Sequence record: PQ374922.1
Length of the DNA stretch: 64,000 nt
Reading direction: 5' to 3' (one strand)
Origin: a phage
Both the position numbers and the translations under genes were made by a program. Positions 5,566-22,579 of the stretch are shown piece after piece. The notes under the pieces are model-generated. The model saw only the letters and a list, made by a program, of their open reading frames with translations, had not been told where the DNA came from and did not search any database. Each line of letters begins with the position of its first letter. Positions within the stretch are counted from its first letter, which is position 1.

Positions 5566-6312
5566 ATGGCATCCCTCCAAGATCTACGCAAGCTGAACGA
5601 CTTCGAAAACCGTCATTACACATTCCAGCAATACGAACTTCCTTACAAGGAACTGGAGTGTGTTACGACGGAGAATGGTCGTCATTACGTTTCACCGTCT
5701 GGTGTAAAACTGACATCCGTCACGACTATGCTGGGACGCACTGGAGATCATGAATGGCTTGAGTCTTGGAGGAAGAAGCTGGGCGCAGAGGCCGCTGACC
5801 TTGAGACCATGCGCTGTGCTGACCGAGGGGAGAAGCTGCACCTTGCGTGTGAACTGTATCTAAAGAACCGCCCAATGAAAGAAGTGTTGGAAGCGGCTGG
5901 CGAATACATGTTCATGTTCAAGCAGCTGTTCCCTTACCTGAACAAGATGACAAAGATCTATGCTCAGGAGATCCCATTATATAGCGAGGTGCTTGGTCTT
6001 GCAGGTCGTGTAGACCTTATCGGGGTTTATGAGGGTAAACCTGCTGTCATCGACTTCAAGACATCGAACACCATGAAGACGCGGGGCATGATCGAGGATT
6101 ACAGTATCCAGCTATGCTTATATTCGGTCATGTTCCAGCAGATGTTCGGCGTCAAGATCACCCGCCTCATCAACGTGATCGCCAACGAGTCTTCCCCTCT
6201 ACCAACCGTCATTGAGTTCAACCGTGATGACATTCTGACAAAGATGTTTGAGCGTGTTCGTCTGTATCATCGCATGGATAAAGAACAAAACGGAGTCTGG
6301 CCGGATCACTAA
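5566..6312 (+). CDS. PD-(D/E)xK family exonuclease (RecB/Cas4/lambda-exo-like)
   Basis: Motif GRVDLIGV...VIDFKTS (D...D/E.K core); AGGA RBS. Confidence 0.55.
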   Translation: MASLQDLRKLNDFENRHYTFQQYELPYKELECVTTENGRHYVSPSGVKLTSVTTMLGRTGDHEWLESWRKKLGAEAADLETMRCADRGEKLHLACELYLKNRPMKEVLEAAGEYMFMFKQLFPYLNKMTKIYAQEIPLYSEVLGLAGRVDLIGVYEGKPAVIDFKTSNTMKTRGMIEDYSIQLCLYSVMFQQMFGVKITRLINVIANESSPLPTVIEFNRDDILTKMFERVRLYHRMDKEQNGVWPDH

Positions 6313-6340
6313 ATACCCCATAATCCTTGGGAGATTTTGT

Positions 6341-7849
6341 ATGGTAGACATTCAGATTGTTAAGGTTAACGAAGTCCGCATGCGTTGCATCGCAGATCTT
6401 TCTATCAGGGAAGAACTTAATGACTACTTCAAATTCGAAGACCCGAACTTCGTTCCCAACCCCTTTTCTAAATGGGACGGGGTTGTCCGCCTATTTACCA
6501 AGTCATCTGGTCTAATCGATATCGGTCTGCTGTTTGAGGTATTTAAGTTCTGTAAGAACAACGGATACACCATTGAACTGGATCCGGCACTGAAGTACAT
6601 TCAGGACATCCCAGATGAAGAAATCCGTGACTTCATCGACAGTCTGCATCCAAAGATCCGCACCGAAAATCACGAATATATCGATGCCGAGACTCGTGAC
6701 TACCAGTACGACACCATCGCCAAGGCTATGCGTCAAACCAGATGCGTCTGTGAACTGGCTACGAGTGCCGGTAAGTCCTTTATTCTGTATGTCATGGCGC
6801 GGTACTACAGGCGGCGCAGAGAAGCTCTCGAAAGTCCTCTGAAGACGCTTATCGTGGTGCCGTCAATCCACCTAGTCACTCAGCTGTACGACAACTTCGA
6901 AGAGTATGCACATGGCAGTGATTGGAAGCCCGTTGTTAACACCCAGCTGATTTTTGAGGGCGCGACAAAGGATATCAGCAAACCAATCGTCATCAGTACA
7001 TGGCAAGGCATTCAAGACCAGCCGAAGGAATGGTTCCACCAGTTCGGTGATATCGTGGTGGATGAAGTGCACACCTCCAAGTCTGAGAAACTGTCTTACA
7101 TCCTAAACAACTGCATCTATGCCGACCAGCGCCTGGGGGTTACAGGTACGCTGGCGAATACCAAAGTTGCCGGGCTTCAGGTGGTGGCTCACTTCGGGGC
7201 GTACCATAAGATCATCACGGCTCGCGATCTTATCAATCTCGGGTACGCCACTGACATCAAAGTGAAGATGATCCAGCTGAAGCACACTCCGGCGGATGCT
7301 GTTGGTCTGGACGGGGATTATTCCAAGGAAATAGAATACCTTATCACACACCAGTCCCGCAACGAACTGATCGCCAAGATGGCACTGAATCTGAAAGGAA
7401 ACGTGGCCATCATGTTCGAACGTATTGATGGTCACATGATGGTCGTGTATGATATGCTGAGCGCGGTCAAGCCCAACGTGTTTGTCATCAACGGGGAAGT
7501 AAAGATCGAAGACCGCCGCCGCATACAGAAAGCGATGGAGGATGGAGAGGACATCACCCTGTTGGCATCATACGGGACAATGCAGCAGGGAGTGTCGATC
7601 AAGAAGCTACACCACCTTGTACTGGCACACCCGAGCAAGTCATATATCCGCGTCATACAGACATTGGGTCGTCTGATGCGTCAGCACTCCTCTAAGGACG
7701 TCGCGTGGATATGGGACTTAGTGGATGATGCATCGTACAACGCCAGCACGAACCACGCTCTTAGGCACTCTCACGAGCGTTACAAGTTTTACCTGGCAGA
7801 GCGCCACCCTGTGGAGTTCATGAAGGTGGCGCTGGGTAATCACGATTAA
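6341..7849 (+). CDS. uvsW: SF2 DNA helicase, UvsW-like
   Basis: Walker A ATSAGKS, DEVH box, helicase C-terminal motifs; start at internal ATG with GGGAGA RBS (ORF track starts at 6248). Confidence 0.7.
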   Translation: MVDIQIVKVNEVRMRCIADLSIREELNDYFKFEDPNFVPNPFSKWDGVVRLFTKSSGLIDIGLLFEVFKFCKNNGYTIELDPALKYIQDIPDEEIRDFIDSLHPKIRTENHEYIDAETRDYQYDTIAKAMRQTRCVCELATSAGKSFILYVMARYYRRRREALESPLKTLIVVPSIHLVTQLYDNFEEYAHGSDWKPVVNTQLIFEGATKDISKPIVISTWQGIQDQPKEWFHQFGDIVVDEVHTSKSEKLSYILNNCIYADQRLGVTGTLANTKVAGLQVVAHFGAYHKIITARDLINLGYATDIKVKMIQLKHTPADAVGLDGDYSKEIEYLITHQSRNELIAKMALNLKGNVAIMFERIDGHMMVVYDMLSAVKPNVFVINGEVKIEDRRRIQKAMEDGEDITLLASYGTMQQGVSIKKLHHLVLAHPSKSYIRVIQTLGRLMRQHSSKDVAWIWDLVDDASYNASTNHALRHSHERYKFYLAERHPVEFMKVALGNHD

Positions 7850-12195: not shown

Positions 12196-13416
12196 ATGAA
12201 AGATAAAGCCCTGGACGTCCCGTACTGCGGTGTCCGTGAAGAAAAGATAAAGTCGGCCAAACCGGTTCTCAGTCCGACCCATACCTGCCTGTCTTACGAA
12301 TGGATGCGCGATCGTTATCAGATCCACGTCAAGAAGGACGTCCAGCGCCTTCCTGCTCCTTGGACTGATAATCCCATATTACGGCAGGTCAAGTTCTGTA
12401 ACGTCCGGAGAGAGCACGACAGGCAGTCTCTCAACCTGATCAACAACATCGTCAACAACGATGCTCTGGGTATGGCCGACAAGATGTTCAACTGCGTGTT
12501 GTTCCGCATGTTCAACCTCTGGGATCCAATCCAGGCTATCGGCGGCGCGATGACGATCAAAGAATTCGCCGAGATCAACCTCGATGCAACCCGCGAACGA
12601 CTTAAGAAGTTCGAGGCCGACGGCGGTAAGGTATTCACCAATGCCTTCAACACGGGCGGCCTGAAACAATGCCTGGCTTTCCCTGAGATGGTTGTCAACC
12701 ACAAGGAGCAGCGCTTCGGTGGGATGATGGTGAATCTGATCTGTAAAGATGGTTCAACCCAGAACATGGATTATAAAGAAGCCAAGGCGATAGCCGAAGC
12801 AGAACCGGACTTCTACACCATCGAAGGTTGGGAACCGTACATGCCAATGCGTGTCATCCGCTCCCTGAAGGCATTCGTCAACAAGTATCCAAATTACTTC
12901 CATGACCTGCTGCGCCTTGGTACTCCTTTGGAAGTATACCAGCGCATGTACGACGACATCGAAGGGCTTGGTCCATTCCTGGCCTATCAGATCTGGGTAG
13001 ACTTCACTTACATTCCTGAATATCCTTTCAGTGAGAACCACTTCACGGTTGCTGGACCAGGCTGTCGCGCAGGGATCGACCTGATGTTCCAGGACAAAGA
13101 TGGCATGACGCATGAAGAATGCATCTTCTGGTTGCGGGACAATCAGGACGCGGTTTATGGCCCTCTTGGGTATAACAGGGAAGAATTTTGGTCTGCGGAA
13201 GAGCCTTGGGATCAGTGTATGAATGTGATGAGCATCGAGAATATGGCATGTGAATTGTCGAAATATACTCGTTGTGTAGAGGCCATACAGCAAGGTAAAA
13301 AACCGCGCGGGAAGGTTGGATATGACGGCGGTGGGGAATACAAAAAGCGCTGTGATGAAGTCGTGCTCAAACGTGGTTCCGTCAATTTGCTGGACCGTTT
13401 GAAGAAACCTGAATAA
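12196..13416 (+). CDS. hypothetical protein (406 aa), candidate nucleic-acid modification enzyme
   Basis: Long ORF after terminator-promoter hairpin; no motif confidently recognised. Confidence 0.6.
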   Translation: MKDKALDVPYCGVREEKIKSAKPVLSPTHTCLSYEWMRDRYQIHVKKDVQRLPAPWTDNPILRQVKFCNVRREHDRQSLNLINNIVNNDALGMADKMFNCVLFRMFNLWDPIQAIGGAMTIKEFAEINLDATRERLKKFEADGGKVFTNAFNTGGLKQCLAFPEMVVNHKEQRFGGMMVNLICKDGSTQNMDYKEAKAIAEAEPDFYTIEGWEPYMPMRVIRSLKAFVNKYPNYFHDLLRLGTPLEVYQRMYDDIEGLGPFLAYQIWVDFTYIPEYPFSENHFTVAGPGCRAGIDLMFQDKDGMTHEECIFWLRDNQDAVYGPLGYNREEFWSAEEPWDQCMNVMSIENMACELSKYTRCVEAIQQGKKPRGKVGYDGGGEYKKRCDEVVLKRGSVNLLDRLKKPE

Positions 13417-17062: not shown

Positions 17063-17917
17063 ATGTTTCGTTTGAAATTGAACGACCAAGATGTGTTCTA
17101 CAAACACTTCACCTTCCCAGGTGGTGAGGAACATATCAAGATTCAAAAGTCTGGTATCCCTATCGGCCACGTTCAGAACGTGGCGATTGATGCTCACATC
17201 AAATCATCGGCTGACTTCATTGAGCTGGCGCTTCTGGTAAACGCCGTTCGTGGTCTGGGTAACGTGGACCGTCTGACGACATTCCATGCGTATATCCCTT
17301 ACTTCCCGTATGCTCGCCAGGACCGCCATTGTGACTTCGGTGAGCCTCTGTCTGTGAAGTGGGCGGCTGAGTTCATCAATAGCATGAACTTTGACCGCGT
17401 GGCGATCAAAGATCCTCACAGCCATGTTGTGTCTTCTCTGATCAACAACGTCCATGTTGTCCCGCAAGATTACATCGTGCGTCAGTATCTGGGCTGGTTC
17501 ATCCGTGGGAACAACGCTGTGTTGGTAGCCCCTGACGGCGGCGCGGCTAAGAAGACCGAAGCCCTCAGTCTGTCGTTGGACGGTGTTCCTGTTGTCTACG
17601 GTCACAAGAACCGTGACACCAAGACTGGTGAGATCATTGGGGTGAGTATTACGAACCCTGAACTGATCAAAGACCGCTATCTGGTGGTGGTCGATGATAT
17701 CTGCGACGGTGGGCGCACGTTCGTTGAGTTAGGCAAAGAGCTTCAGAAGCACAAGCCTAAGCACATGACGCTCTTCGTTACCCATGGCATCTTCAGCAAA
17801 GGTCTCTCTGTTTTCGACGGGATCTATGATGCTGTGTATGCCGACACTGTCTGGTGGGAGAACATCACCGCCGACGGGCTTCCTTTCAAAACTGAAAATA
17901 CAGGACGTGTAAAATGA
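17063..17917 (+). CDS. ribose-phosphate pyrophosphokinase (PRPP synthetase) family; Prs or ADP-ribose pyrophosphokinase (Adps)-like
   Basis: IPYFPYARQDR and PRPP-binding VVVDDICDGGRTF motifs; 284 aa, shorter than cellular Prs. Confidence 0.85.
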   Translation: MFRLKLNDQDVFYKHFTFPGGEEHIKIQKSGIPIGHVQNVAIDAHIKSSADFIELALLVNAVRGLGNVDRLTTFHAYIPYFPYARQDRHCDFGEPLSVKWAAEFINSMNFDRVAIKDPHSHVVSSLINNVHVVPQDYIVRQYLGWFIRGNNAVLVAPDGGAAKKTEALSLSLDGVPVVYGHKNRDTKTGEIIGVSITNPELIKDRYLVVVDDICDGGRTFVELGKELQKHKPKHMTLFVTHGIFSKGLSVFDGIYDAVYADTVWWENITADGLPFKTENTGRVK

Positions 17918-19578
17918 GCATGCGCCACTTAGACCCAATCCATGCGATCGACTTCTACAAATCGGGGCACATCTATCAGTTCCCTGAAGGCAGTGAGCTG
18001 GTGTTCTCCAACGGAACTCCGCGCTCTAACAAACTGTTCAACTCTCACCTGCCGAAGAACGGCGTGGTGGTCTGGGGCATCCAGGGCTTCATGACCTGGT
18101 TCCACGAACTGTTTGACGAAGCATTCTTCCAGCGCCCGAAGGCCAAGGTGCTGAAGAAGTATGCCCGTCGCATGAACAAAGTCCTGGGTCCAGGCCGCGT
18201 CGGCACAGAGCATATTGAAGCCCTGCATGACCTCGGCTACCTGCCTATCGAAGTCCGTGCGCTGCCTGAAGGCACCATGTGTCCGTATGGCGTTCCGGTG
18301 TATGTGATGTTCAATACCCTGCCGGAGTTCTACTGGCTGACCAACTATCTGGAGACTGTGTTCAGCTCTGAGATCTGGAAGCCGATGACGAACGCCACCA
18401 TAGCTCTGCATTACAAGGCACTGATGGTGAAAGCTGCCCTCGCTACGGGAGTATCACCAGACCATTGGTTCATCGACTACCAAGGTCACGACTTCTCCTT
18501 CCGTGGTATGAGCGGGTGGCATGACGCCGCGTCTTCCGGTTCCGGTCATCTGGTGTTCTTCAAAGGCACCGACACCAACCCTGCCCTGGACTTCGTAGAA
18601 GAGTATTATGGCGCAGACATCGACGAAGACTATGTCGTTGCTGGGTCGGTTGCCGCAACGGAACATGCGGTGATGTGTATGGGCACGAAGGATGGTGAAT
18701 TCGAAACCTTCCGCCGCCTGGTGCAGGACGTGTATCCTGATGGCATCGTCAGCATCGTGTCTGATGCGTGGGATTACTGGCAGGTCATCGACGACTATCT
18801 GCCTCGCCTGAAAGACATTATCATGGCGCGCAATGGTAAAGTCGTGATCCGCCCCGACTCGGGCGACCCTGTACACATCGTCGGCGGCTACCGCATCGAG
18901 GGGTTCAAAGACCGCGCTACGCTGAACATCAGCGGCGTGTCTAGCAGCACCGAAGTTATCCACATCGAAGAGACGAACACCTATCACCTGATCACAGGCG
19001 AAGGCACGATCAACTCTCTGATGGCAGATGACCGTAATATCATCAGCCGTTCAGAAGCGGTCGGCTCTATCCAGCGCCTGTGGGAGATCTTTGGTGGCAC
19101 CCAGACTGAAACTGGGCACTTCCTGTTGGATGAGCACATCGGCCTGATCTACGGTGATTCTATCACCCTGGCGCGTGAAGACCAGATCTTTAGCCGTCTG
19201 GCTGACCGGAACTTCGCTTCCATCAACGTGGTGTTCGGTATCGGTTCCTACACCTACCAGATGAACACCCGTGACAGTACTGGCACAGCAGTGAAAGCCA
19301 CGGCTGGTAAAGTGAACGGTGAATTCCGTGAGATCTTCAAAGAGCCGAAGACCGATAAAGGCGGGACTAAAAAGTCTGCGCGTGGTTTCCTTAAAGTCAT
19401 TAAAGACCCTCAGGGTAAACTAGTGTTGGTTGACGGTATCACTTTTGATCAGGTGCAAGACGCCGACAACCAGCACCAGCTGGTGTATCGTGATGGCGAG
19501 TTCTTCAATACTCAAACACTGGAAGATGCGCGTGTTCGTGCTGCTCCTCTGGTGACGGAACTGGCATCACAAATCTGA
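17914..19578 (+). CDS. nicotinamide phosphoribosyltransferase family (NadV/NAMPT or Namat-like)
   Basis: 554-aa ORF translationally coupled to Prs-like gene (ATGA overlap); recognised as NAMPT-type phosphoribosyltransferase by overall sequence pattern. Confidence 0.8.
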   Translation: MSMRHLDPIHAIDFYKSGHIYQFPEGSELVFSNGTPRSNKLFNSHLPKNGVVVWGIQGFMTWFHELFDEAFFQRPKAKVLKKYARRMNKVLGPGRVGTEHIEALHDLGYLPIEVRALPEGTMCPYGVPVYVMFNTLPEFYWLTNYLETVFSSEIWKPMTNATIALHYKALMVKAALATGVSPDHWFIDYQGHDFSFRGMSGWHDAASSGSGHLVFFKGTDTNPALDFVEEYYGADIDEDYVVAGSVAATEHAVMCMGTKDGEFETFRRLVQDVYPDGIVSIVSDAWDYWQVIDDYLPRLKDIIMARNGKVVIRPDSGDPVHIVGGYRIEGFKDRATLNISGVSSSTEVIHIEETNTYHLITGEGTINSLMADDRNIISRSEAVGSIQRLWEIFGGTQTETGHFLLDEHIGLIYGDSITLAREDQIFSRLADRNFASINVVFGIGSYTYQMNTRDSTGTAVKATAGKVNGEFREIFKEPKTDKGGTKKSARGFLKVIKDPQGKLVLVDGITFDQVQDADNQHQLVYRDGEFFNTQTLEDARVRAAPLVTELASQI

Positions 19579-19680: not shown

Positions 19681-19896
19681 ATGATACTGAAAGAATGTTT
19701 TACCGACCTGAAGGCGACGTCTGAAAGTATTCCGGCTTGCATTCAGAACTATGCTCCAAAGGATGTGCTCTTGGCTCAGCTGGAGCAGTCTCGTGAATTT
19801 ATCAACAATATGCTGGACTCTGTAAAGACGCGCATCGAAGCCGCTGATGAGTCTGAACTTAACCCTTACGCACAAGGCGAAGAAAACAATGATTGA
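19681..19896 (+). CDS. hypothetical small protein (71 aa)
   Basis: ORF after terminator; weak RBS. Confidence 0.3.
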   Translation: MILKECFTDLKATSESIPACIQNYAPKDVLLAQLEQSREFINNMLDSVKTRIEAADESELNPYAQGEENND

Positions 19897-22090
19897 ATCA
19901 TTAGAATTTAAGAATGCGGTTGCGACTGCTGCCCCGTCCAACCATGTAATCGTTGTAGACATTTCCGGCTCTATGTACCGTGCGCTCCCTGAAGTCCGCA
20001 AGCACCTGAAGGAGAACCTGCCATCCCTGGTGAAACCGGAAGACACTGTGAGTGTTCTATACTTCTCATCCAAAGGCGACTTTGGTACTGTGTTCGCTGG
20101 CCGTCAGATCAATGCAGCATCCGACCTGAGCGAAATCAACAATCTGATTGACCGCTTCCTGAAACCGTCTGGTTGCACTGGCTTTGTTGAGCCGTTGAAA
20201 CTGGCGATGGACACTGCTCGTGGCCTGAAGAAGCCTGGCTATGTCAACAACCTGGCGTTCATGACTGACGGGTATGACAACTGCTGGCGTACCAACGAAA
20301 TTCTACTGGTTGCTGAGACCCTGCCATTTGCTTTCGATAACATTACATTTATTGAATATGGCTGGTACTGTAACCGCGAACTGCTGGCGCAGATGGCCGA
20401 ACGCTCTGGTGCTACTCACGTGTTTGCCGAAGGTCAGACCGAATACCAGACCGAACTGGAAAACGTGCTGAAGTCATCAGTGCCGAAGGTGAAAGTTGAT
20501 GTCCCAGTCATCTACACCCATGCCATCTACGTCGAAAACGGTGTGGCAACAGTACTGGCGGTGCAGGACGATGACTCTCACCCGGTCGGCTATGTGAGCA
20601 TCCCTGAGAGCATCACCAAGCTGTGGGTTGTAAACCCTAACATGATCGACCAGCTTGATGCGCTGGCGGATATCCAGGCGGCATACGTGCTGGCGTTCTA
20701 CGGCGTACACATCATGGACGCGGACCTGGTGTGGGCTGCACTGAAGAAAACGGGTGACGTTCGCTTCATCAAACAGTACAGCAACTGCTTCACCAAGCAG
20801 GACTACTCCAACATCAAGAACGATCTGGTTCAGGCGATTGTTGACGACCAGCTGCGCGGCGTTGACGGTATTGACTATGACCTGGTTCCGGCTGAAGATG
20901 CGACCACCGTCGTTGATGTGCTGACGTACCTGGCTGAAGCTGGTGTGCCTGTTGCTACCAAGCATCCGATGTTCTCCTATAAGAGCATCGGGCGCGGTAC
21001 TGTGCAGAAAACCGACGACACCGAAGACAAGCTGGCAGAACAGATCGCGAATGCTCAGTCCAAAGAAGAGCGTAAAGCCCTGGCTCTCAAGCTGGCAGAA
21101 CACGAAGAGTGGAACCCGACGTTCGAACCTACCAACGACCTGGGTGTTGTGCCAATCAGCGATTTGGTCTATAACTCCGAGCGCCCGAACATCAGTGTGC
21201 GTACAATTCAACACGGTACTGTGGCTGTGCCTGAATTCGCACAGAAGAAGTTTGGCCTGCCTGAAGAACTGGACACTTTCCAGTGGCGCAACTACACCAT
21301 CGTCAAAGACGGCATCATCAACGTGAAGACTCTGCCGTTCAAGGCTGATATCGAAGTTGTACAGAAGCTGATCGAAATGGGCGTCCACGTGTTTGGTGGT
21401 CCGGAAGTGTTCATCCTGAACCTGGAAAGCGTACCACTGGTCAACCGCGCCATGGTCAAGAACATCAGTGCTGCTCAGTTCTTTGCGGATAATGTCCGTT
21501 TGGAAGCCCTGAAAGGCAAGCAGAAGGTGCTGAAGTTCTATCGAGACGCCCTGGTTGGTAAGGGTAACGCCAAAGGCCTGGCAGTACAGTACGGTGCTGA
21601 GGCGGCCGAGTTCCTGTCCTCCTACGGTATCCGCGATTACGGCTTCTCACCGAAGACTGAGACCAAAGAGTCTACCGACTTCTACATGAGCCGTGAGCTG
21701 AACGTTAAGATCGCCGGGGCGTCTTCACTACCGAGCATCGCGGCAGTACAGAAGAAGATCGCAGAGAATAAGAAACTCAATGCTGGTGACTTGTTTATCG
21801 CCAATGCTCTGAAAGAGTACGAAGCATTCGTGAAGTCTCCTATGATCACTGCCGTGCCTGAAGCCTTACAGAAACAGCTGATCGAAAACTGGATCGACGC
21901 TGCTGCCAAGGCGGCCATCACCGAAGTCCGTGCCCTGAACAAGACACTGTCTAAAGTGGTGTATGGTATCGTTGCTGGCCACGGCTGGTTCACCGACCTC
22001 GACCTGGAAGAGTCCACCATGGAAGTTGAAGTGGATGGCGTGAAGTACAAGGTCACTGCCGAACTGACAGAGAAAGAAATCAAAATCTAA
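19889..22090 (+). CDS. von Willebrand factor A (vWA) domain protein (733 aa)
   Basis: MIDAS motif VIVVDISGSM...FMTDGYDN near N-terminus; internal ATG 19889 chosen. Confidence 0.7.
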   Translation: MIESLEFKNAVATAAPSNHVIVVDISGSMYRALPEVRKHLKENLPSLVKPEDTVSVLYFSSKGDFGTVFAGRQINAASDLSEINNLIDRFLKPSGCTGFVEPLKLAMDTARGLKKPGYVNNLAFMTDGYDNCWRTNEILLVAETLPFAFDNITFIEYGWYCNRELLAQMAERSGATHVFAEGQTEYQTELENVLKSSVPKVKVDVPVIYTHAIYVENGVATVLAVQDDDSHPVGYVSIPESITKLWVVNPNMIDQLDALADIQAAYVLAFYGVHIMDADLVWAALKKTGDVRFIKQYSNCFTKQDYSNIKNDLVQAIVDDQLRGVDGIDYDLVPAEDATTVVDVLTYLAEAGVPVATKHPMFSYKSIGRGTVQKTDDTEDKLAEQIANAQSKEERKALALKLAEHEEWNPTFEPTNDLGVVPISDLVYNSERPNISVRTIQHGTVAVPEFAQKKFGLPEELDTFQWRNYTIVKDGIINVKTLPFKADIEVVQKLIEMGVHVFGGPEVFILNLESVPLVNRAMVKNISAAQFFADNVRLEALKGKQKVLKFYRDALVGKGNAKGLAVQYGAEAAEFLSSYGIRDYGFSPKTETKESTDFYMSRELNVKIAGASSLPSIAAVQKKIAENKKLNAGDLFIANALKEYEAFVKSPMITAVPEALQKQLIENWIDAAAKAAITEVRALNKTLSKVVYGIVAGHGWFTDLDLEESTMEVEVDGVKYKVTAELTEKEIKI

Positions 22091-22095
22091 TCCAA

Positions 22096-22120
22096 CGGGC
22101 GGGGCAACCCGCCTTTCTTT
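22096..22120 (+). terminator. rho-independent terminator after vWA gene
   Basis: gggcggg-gcaa-cccgcc followed by tttcttt. Confidence 0.7.
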
Positions 22121-22132
22121 GGGAGAAGTAGC

Positions 22133-22456
22133 ATGAGCAGTAAACCAACATATGTTGAAGTCATGCGTCATCTGGCTCAGTACGCCACTGACAATCTGAA
22201 TATGGATCTGTGGCGTGACGATGACAAGCGCAAATTGCTGGACGACGTGGCATCTCAGAACGAGGACGCCCTGGACAAGCTGGCTGGCCTCCGTACCAAG
22301 AAAGACCTCGGCGGTGATGAACTGGATGCCATCGAAATTGTAATGGAACTAGAAGAAGAGTTCAACGTCGAAATCGACGACGGTTGGCTGGGTAGTAAAG
22401 GTGATGACCCGACCATGGGTGAACTCGCTGAACTCGTGGTTGCCCTGCGCAAATAA
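22133..22456 (+). CDS. acyl carrier protein homolog lacking phosphopantetheine-attachment serine
   Basis: KDLGGDELDAIEIVMELEEEFNVEI aligns with ACP [24 protein letters not shown], with Ser replaced by Glu. Confidence 0.7.
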   Translation: MSSKPTYVEVMRHLAQYATDNLNMDLWRDDDKRKLLDDVASQNEDALDKLAGLRTKKDLGGDELDAIEIVMELEEEFNVEIDDGWLGSKGDDPTMGELAELVVALRK

Positions 22457-22579
22457 CAGAAGCCCCCAACAAACGTTGGGGATTTTTACTTTTAGGGGTT
22501 TACTTCCTCTAAGGAATGTCCTATTATTCAATAACTGGCGAACGATGGCGTTCACCAGATTGAGATGAAGGATTACATT

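Follow-up and report, generated by a model that had tools for sequence, protein, structure and literature searches.

A phage acyl carrier protein homologue fixed without its attachment serine, a possible mimic of host AcpP

What role can a phage gene play that is labeled "acyl carrier protein" in GenBank and PHROGs and that encodes a glutamate at the position of the attachment serine? The gene lies at 22133..22456 on the plus strand of the window (i.e., the whole 64,000-nucleotide stretch of phage DNA analyzed here; sequence record PQ374922.1). It encodes a protein of 107 amino acids with an acyl carrier protein (ACP) fold and no attachment serine, starting at an ATG and ending at a TAA that is included in the end coordinate. 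A Shine-Dalgarno-like GGGAGAAG (22121..22128, plus strand), read from the sequence, is located 5 to 12 nt 5' of the ATG. The phage belongs to the Ackermannviridae; over 1.6 kb around the gene, its identity to Enterobacter phage EspM4VN (Agtrevirus) and several phages of Escherichia and Salmonella is 91 to 98%. Elsewhere in the window, a gene for a 5-hydroxymethyl-dU DNA kinase (12196-13416; PF18723, E 3.7e-81) marks the thymidine hypermodification typical of ViI-like phages.

Homology to ACPs, which an earlier note on this DNA had claimed, held in every comparison and well beyond chance. Pfam PF00550 (PP-binding) matched residues 58-101 with 26.7 bits against a gathering cutoff of 20.8 (E 6.7e-6), and PHROG 4154 ("acyl carrier protein") aligned with the whole protein (residues 1-107 versus profile positions 1-108 of 108; E 2.6e-57). 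In a phmmer search of the PDB, in which matches were taken up to an E of 10, the best 60 of 100 matches were all ACPs (top E 2.3e-6), and hhalign against an AcpP-type alignment gave a probability of 98.4% (E 9e-15). Structure prediction, which had been proposed as a check, returned an ACP fold: the AlphaFold2 model (pLDDT 78) has predicted helices at residues 7-21, 30-40, 44-51, 66-77, and 95-105, in agreement with the four-helix ACP/PCP fold. The NCBIfam AcpP equivalog model TIGR00517 reached 35.8 bits against a cutoff of 70.45, and did so over residues 54-83 (i.e., helix II) only. By sequence profile and predicted fold, the window protein is thus an ACP homologue, and its score below the TIGR00517 cutoff indicates that it is no bona fide AcpP.

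The predicted AcpP-type recognition helix II (residues 58-81; 22304..22375, plus strand) reads DLGGDELDAIEIVMELEEEFNVEI, exactly as quoted in the earlier note. The replacement of the serine of the DSL motif was likewise confirmed, since query residues D62-E63-L64 fall on the D-S-L motif in the PDB alignments and Glu63, encoded by GAA at 22319..22321 (plus strand), aligns to Ser36 of Escherichia coli AcpP.

This replacement is a property of the whole family. A tblastn search detected the protein in 275 phage records, 271 of them covering at least 80% of the query, in the genera Kuttervirus, Agtrevirus, Limestonevirus, and Taipeivirus and their relatives. The motif L-G-G-D-[E/D]-L-D is invariant in 26 diverse homologues that are 56 to 96% identical, and the forms from Serratia phages 3M/phiMAM1 and Erwinia phage Bue1 read DELD. 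Full-length relatives at 33 to 50% identity came from a profile search of 1.84 billion representative proteins, as did short forms without the N-terminal extension described below, and all of these have Glu or Asp. When 39 members (19 to 96% identical to the window protein) were pooled, the position equivalent to the serine was Glu in 33 and Asp in 6, and Ser in none. The pattern indicates that the serine was lost long ago and that its absence has been strictly maintained. Several metagenomic Glu-type relatives (P0053, P0055, P0110, and P0074) sit on short contigs. Longer proteins of 235 to 425 aa (P0074, P0076, and P0103, which are metagenomic, and that of locus L010) contain two or three tandem ACP-like domains, mostly with Glu or Asp in place of Ser; one domain of P0076 has Trp.

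With Glu or Asp in place of Ser, a phosphopantetheinyl transferase would be unable to load the canonical site, and no acyl shuttling would be expected. An alternative conserved Ser was sought across the family and none was found; the serines of the window protein (positions 2, 3, 41, and 88) are all variable. No AcpS-like gene was detected in Ackermannviridae by tblastn (E ≤ 0.01) with an approximate AcpS query, which did detect cyanophage acpS. No fab, PKS, or other acyl-handling genes were detected near the ACP-like gene; its neighbors are a gene for a von Willebrand factor A (vWA) protein, NAMPT, PRPP synthetase, and small hypothetical genes. The missing canonical Ser, the lack of a conserved alternative, and the lack of an AcpS-like gene together make a classical carrier role of the window protein very unlikely. 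A carrier of another kind is conceivable, in which a noncanonical residue would be modified or a noncanonical group would be attached to the Glu/Asp carboxylate. LysW, a carrier protein of unrelated fold, uses a Glu carboxylate, and Thr94 of the window protein is conserved (Ser in a few members). However, Thr94 occupies a structural position in a T-x-x-E helix-capping box, no further Ser or Thr is conserved, and searches of the neighborhood and of the family detected no gene for a phosphopantetheinyl transferase, a ligase, or an acyl-handling enzyme, so that we regard a carrier of this kind as extremely improbable.

The part of the protein that is kept most faithfully is the surface by which AcpP recognizes its clients. 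Among the 39 family members, the equivalents of AcpP D35, L37, E41, and E47 are conserved in all, those of D38, M44, and D56 in 38, and those of E48 and E49 are acidic (Glu or Asp) in 36; the helix II equivalents of F50 and I54 are likewise invariant or nearly so. These counts indicate that the acidic recognition-helix residues of AcpP have been retained, invariant or nearly so, under purifying selection. In AcpP, D35 and D38 are required for the binding of clients such as IscS (PMC13343975). Our preferred reading, to which we assign a probability of roughly 0.4, is that the window protein mimics host AcpP, cannot be acylated, and binds client proteins of AcpP.

The abundance of acidic residues (pI 4.26; 27 acidic versus 13 basic residues, with no cysteine) also brings to mind a DNA mimic or an anti-restriction-type protein for which an ACP scaffold happens to have been used, the more so as the gene lies in an early/accessory region and T7 gp5.9 provides a precedent for DNA mimicry by a small acidic phage protein (PMC7617805). 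Yet E. coli AcpP, computed alongside, is equally acidic (pI 4.05), so the charge appears to be inherited rather than acquired. The conserved residues lie on the client-binding helix of the ACP and form no spaced carboxylate array, and PDB searches detected no similarity to known DNA mimics. A DNA mimic is thus a very unlikely identity for this protein.

Outside helix II, the identity of the Ackermannviridae protein to E. coli AcpP is only ~26% overall, and two regions set it apart. Alignments with ACPs (Plasmodium falciparum ACP and E. coli AcpP) start near residue 28-30, which gives an N-terminal extension of ~27 residues (22133..22213, plus strand) and shortens the figure of ~45 residues given in the earlier note. 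The extension contains a predicted amphipathic helix (residues 7-21), and its residues Y7, V10, L14, A18, N21, and L22 do not vary among the close family members. The second region is a loop, D-x-W-x-G-x3-D-D-P-T (residues 83-94; 22379..22414, plus strand), which stands in place of ACP helix III and of which the main clade conserves W85, G87, and DDPT. Through this N-terminal helix and loop, the protein might serve as a structural subunit or assembly factor of another phage or host complex, with no competition with AcpP, and ACP-like subunits in mitochondrial respiratory complexes and ribosome assembly intermediates provide a precedent. Both regions, however, are missing in the Serratia-phage and Erwinia-phage forms and in the unrelated viral Glu-type forms described below, and the extension is also missing in the short metagenomic forms. 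The universally kept feature is instead the AcpP recognition helix, and the gene context indicates no partner, which leaves a structural role of this kind unlikely.

The gene context does include one conserved neighbor. A 747-aa vWA protein is encoded directly upstream in the window (19847..22090, plus strand), in all close relatives, and in three more distant loci (L002, L004, and L005) whose ACP-like proteins are 33 to 44% identical. The earlier note had placed the ACP-like gene after both the vWA gene and an NAD module. This is true of the window, in which a PRPP-synthetase-like gene overlaps the start of the NAMPT gene and forms an NAD salvage pair with it (17063-19578). The vWA part of the claim extends to the relatives, whereas the adjacency of NAMPT and PRPP synthetase is gone in L004 and L005, and we rejected a functional tie to NAD salvage for this reason. 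The vWA protein itself (PHROG 2426) occurs in 504 phage records, which include Ackermannviridae, Straboviridae (Slopekvirus and RB43-like phages), Bacillus phage PBS1, and Rhizobium phages. Its MIDAS motif (D38-x-S40-x-S42, T111, and D141) is invariant in 28 homologues down to 34% identity. The N-terminal ~290 residues are similar to proteins combining vWA and beta-sandwich domains (4fx5 and archaeal ArnB), and no structural match was found for the C-terminal ~450 residues.

Two hairpins frame the ACP-like gene. A G+C-rich hairpin (22097..22114, plus strand) that lies past the vWA stop codon and ahead of the ACP-like start codon is kept in L001, L002, L004, and L005 with differing stem sequences, and the 18 nt from this hairpin to the start codon leave no room for a promoter. 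Directly 3' of the open reading frame (ORF), a second hairpin (22464-22481) followed by a T-run resembles an intrinsic terminator (22464..22486, plus strand) and is also conserved in relatives with stems that differ in sequence. The conservation of both hairpins with changed stems suggests a single transcription unit whose end lies just past the ACP-like gene. A conserved promoter-like box with TTTAC is located at ~22499-22527, 3' of the second hairpin. The vWA and ACP-like ORFs of the window are in the same frame, with a single TAA and 14 sense codons between them, and readthrough of the stop codon was considered. The frame is common to both ORFs in the window and in EspM4VN (offsets of 2286 and 2274 nt), but not in L004 and L005 (2284 and 2261 nt); the common frame thus looks coincidental and not like programmed readthrough.

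This arrangement raises the alternative that the ACP-like protein is a dedicated partner of the vWA protein, in which the Glu/Asp that is exposed where helix II begins would complete the metal coordination of the MIDAS. In integrin I-domains and anthrax toxin receptors, the MIDAS metal is bound by acidic ligand residues. In addition to the close linkage, which persists down to 33% identity of the ACP-like protein, the two genes look cotranscribed (the hairpin between them offers no space for a promoter, and the terminator after the ACP-like gene is stronger), and the MIDAS residues of the one protein and the acidic residue of the other are both invariant. The numbers of records are also nearly equal (270 with the vWA protein at 60% identity or more versus 271 with the full-length ACP-like gene in the phage collection), and of the 23 IMG/VR loci whose vWA protein is 51% identical or more, 22 have the ACP-like gene. 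On the other hand, the vWA protein as a whole is far commoner than the ACP-like protein, and no ACP-like gene was found within 4 kb of a distant vWA gene (≤50% identity) at any of 52 IMG/VR loci. Linkage is also loosened or broken at closer range: locus L039, with a vWA protein 67% identical, has no ACP-like gene within 4 kb, and ~870 nt separate the two genes in the Serratia phages. The Glu-type ACPs of other viruses (see below) have no vWA neighbor, and the gene order of Ackermannviridae is generally conserved (PMC10892097), so the adjacency may simply be inherited. An ACP-like partner was also sought for the vWA protein of Straboviridae, and the 106-aa gene upstream of the KP15 vWA gene proved dissimilar (hhalign probability of 0.2%). 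The vWA gene thus appears to be a conserved neighbor within Ackermannviridae only; a functional link between the two proteins is possible but unproven, and coordination of the MIDAS metal by the ACP-like protein is improbable on this balance.

Evidence that bears on the AcpP mimic came from other viruses. A scan of IMG/VR with the pattern D[ED]LDx[IV]ExxM recovered the Ackermannviridae genes and 11 other, unrelated viral contigs of 27 to 265 kb. Ten of the latter carry DELD look-alikes of AcpP of normal length (78-90 aa), and one carries the domain inside a 695-aa ORF. These non-Ackermannviridae look-alikes reach 59.7% identity with E. coli AcpP, and their neighbors include genes for a terminase, DNA methyltransferases, a homing endonuclease, and a spore-photoproduct-lyase-like protein; no vWA or fatty acid genes were found near any of the 11. 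Glu-type genes that have no phage neighbor in common point to a conserved host partner. At one locus (5884-6466 of IMGVR_UViG_3300021426_000130), a Glu-type look-alike is followed at once by a Ser-type ACP gene, possibly a decoy next to a working carrier. The best BLAST match was a Ser-type ACP for 11 of the 14 Glu-type sequences compared, and a neighbor-joining tree of 89 domains implied at least 10 Ser/Glu changes, although the sequences are short and the tree has no support values, so the case for multiple independent changes is indicative only.

Glutamate is clearly the exception among viral ACPs. A scan in which the Ser position was left free (DL[GH]ADxLDx[VI]; 381 confirmed viral ACP genes) gave, for the best 80 of the 381 genes, 81 motif matches with 79 Ser, 2 Glu, and no other residue, and a Ser-pattern scan of viruses confirmed at least 185 loci among the first 600 matches listed. 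Ser-type ACPs thus appear to be the majority in viruses. Glu codons are at least two nucleotide changes away from every Ser codon, so glutamate is not reached by a one-step neutral loss, and its repeated appearance in viral contigs that are unrelated suggests that Glu itself has been selected, and not simple decay. Cultured phages outside the Ackermannviridae were considered as further carriers of the Glu type, and all six that were read carry Ser. A bacterial source was also considered: 185,579 bacterial and archaeal species genomes were scanned and no Glu-type relative was found. The 10 loci recovered, all from Planctomycetota/Omnitrophota, comprise 8 with DSL, 1 with Leu at the position, and 1 without a clear motif. 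Within the genomes covered, the Glu type thus appears to be restricted to phages.

An ACP fold without the serine, a preserved docking helix, strong purifying selection, and a phage-only distribution argue for a binding role and not a carrier role. The retained acidic residues of helix II and the recurrence of the Ser-to-Glu change in unrelated viral look-alikes both fit the suggestion of the earlier note that the protein could be a decoy or a scaffold. In a mimic of AcpP, the acidic face of helix II would be the surface for docking onto the basic patches of AcpP clients. The Glu/Asp carboxylate would bar the host AcpS from making a working ACP from the phage protein and would retain a negative charge at the site of the holo-ACP phosphodiester. 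The mimic could then occupy or co-opt one or more host AcpP clients in infection, and the most accessible clients would be those that bind ACP without the prosthetic group, with sn-glycerol-3-phosphate acyltransferase, MukB, and AcpS as candidates. The acyltransferase is inhibited by apo-ACP, which also stops growth (PMC3896788). For MukB, it makes no difference whether AcpP is apo or holo, since both forms bind and both stimulate its ATPase equally (PMC8602292), and MukBEF is targeted by phage T7 gp5.9 (PMC7617805). That the protein is made is indicated by the homologue of phage Sajous1, a peptide of which was detected by proteomics in phage preparations (one "retrieved" count; PMC10892097).

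Several points weigh against the mimic. With an identity of only ~26% outside helix II, helix III lost, and an N-terminal helix gained, the protein may have drifted to another, phage-specific partner. Helix N termini intrinsically favor acidic residues, so the choice of Glu/Asp could be partly structural and not a matter of phosphate mimicry. Host AcpP is among the most abundant E. coli proteins (PMC3896788), and a competitor would need high expression or a much higher affinity. In addition, SpoT and IscS are among the many ACP clients that require the prosthetic group for binding (PMC3896788 and PMC13343975). The argument that the Ser-to-Glu change arose independently is also limited by the shortness of the sequences and by the lack of branch support in the tree.

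A broader proposal is that unrelated phages have repeatedly captured a host AcpP gene and subjected it to the same Ser36-to-Glu change, yielding a phosphate-mimicking decoy that cannot be loaded. This would be a general device of host takeover or counterdefense, of which the Ackermannviridae family would be the largest and most elaborated case. We consider this broader proposal doubtful. If it is true, phages would aim ACP mimicry at an AcpP-dependent hub (membrane lipid synthesis, MukBEF, or AcpS) in a way previously unrecognized.

AcpP is a highly connected protein in bacteria, serving lipid, lipid A, biotin, and lipoate synthesis and also binding MukB, SpoT, and IscS. A phage protein that keeps its docking surface and can never be loaded would therefore serve as a natural dominant-negative probe of the AcpP network and could show which ACP-dependent process is a liability or an obstacle in infection. 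Essentially all Ackermannviridae carry the gene, among them phages of Salmonella, E. coli O157, Klebsiella, and Dickeya that are used or proposed for biocontrol, and its label, "acyl carrier protein," implies a metabolic function that the protein would be unable to perform. Our literature search found no paper on the missing serine or on the function of this ACP-like protein. What appears to be new is a phage-carried ACP-fold protein fixed in a non-loadable, acidic state.

Among the nearest known systems is AcpP of the type II fatty acid synthase (PF00550 and TIGR00517). AcpP has Ser where every phage family member examined has Glu or Asp, and the phage protein has an extra N-terminal helix of ~27 aa and the D-x-W-x-G...DDPT loop for helix III. 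It also scores half the equivalog cutoff, and its context contains no fab or phosphopantetheinyl transferase genes. A second comparison is with the Ser-type phage ACPs (e.g., PHROG 5934; Vibrio phage eugene 12A10, Yersinia phage fHe-Yen9-04, and Brevundimonas phage Bajun), which also stand alone among small hypothetical genes. These keep DSLD in all six cases read and are thus loadable in principle, whereas the Ackermannviridae and the 11 IMG/VR contigs have DELD. The six Ser-type phages (loci L288-L293) are Vibrio P018-4 and eugene 12A10, Yersinia fHe-Yen9-04, Brevundimonas Bajun, Burkholderia BCSR5, and Olleya Harreka_1; several of their ACPs have additional stretches of 60 to 110 residues fused at the N or C terminus, and no fatty acid or polyketide genes were found near them.

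Outside the phages, mitochondrial ACP-like subunits (Trypanosoma brucei mt-SAF32 and the Tetrahymena "acyl carrier-like" COX subunit) have in common with the phage protein the ACP fold as a putative protein-binding module, but they are eukaryotic and organellar, and no closer sequence relationship to the phage protein was detected. Apo-ACP and the laboratory S36T and S36A variants of E. coli AcpP are ACPs that cannot carry the cofactor and yet bind some clients. They are, however, unmodified or engineered host proteins, whereas the non-modifiable state of the phage protein appears to be genetically fixed, specific for Glu/Asp, and conserved over long divergence.
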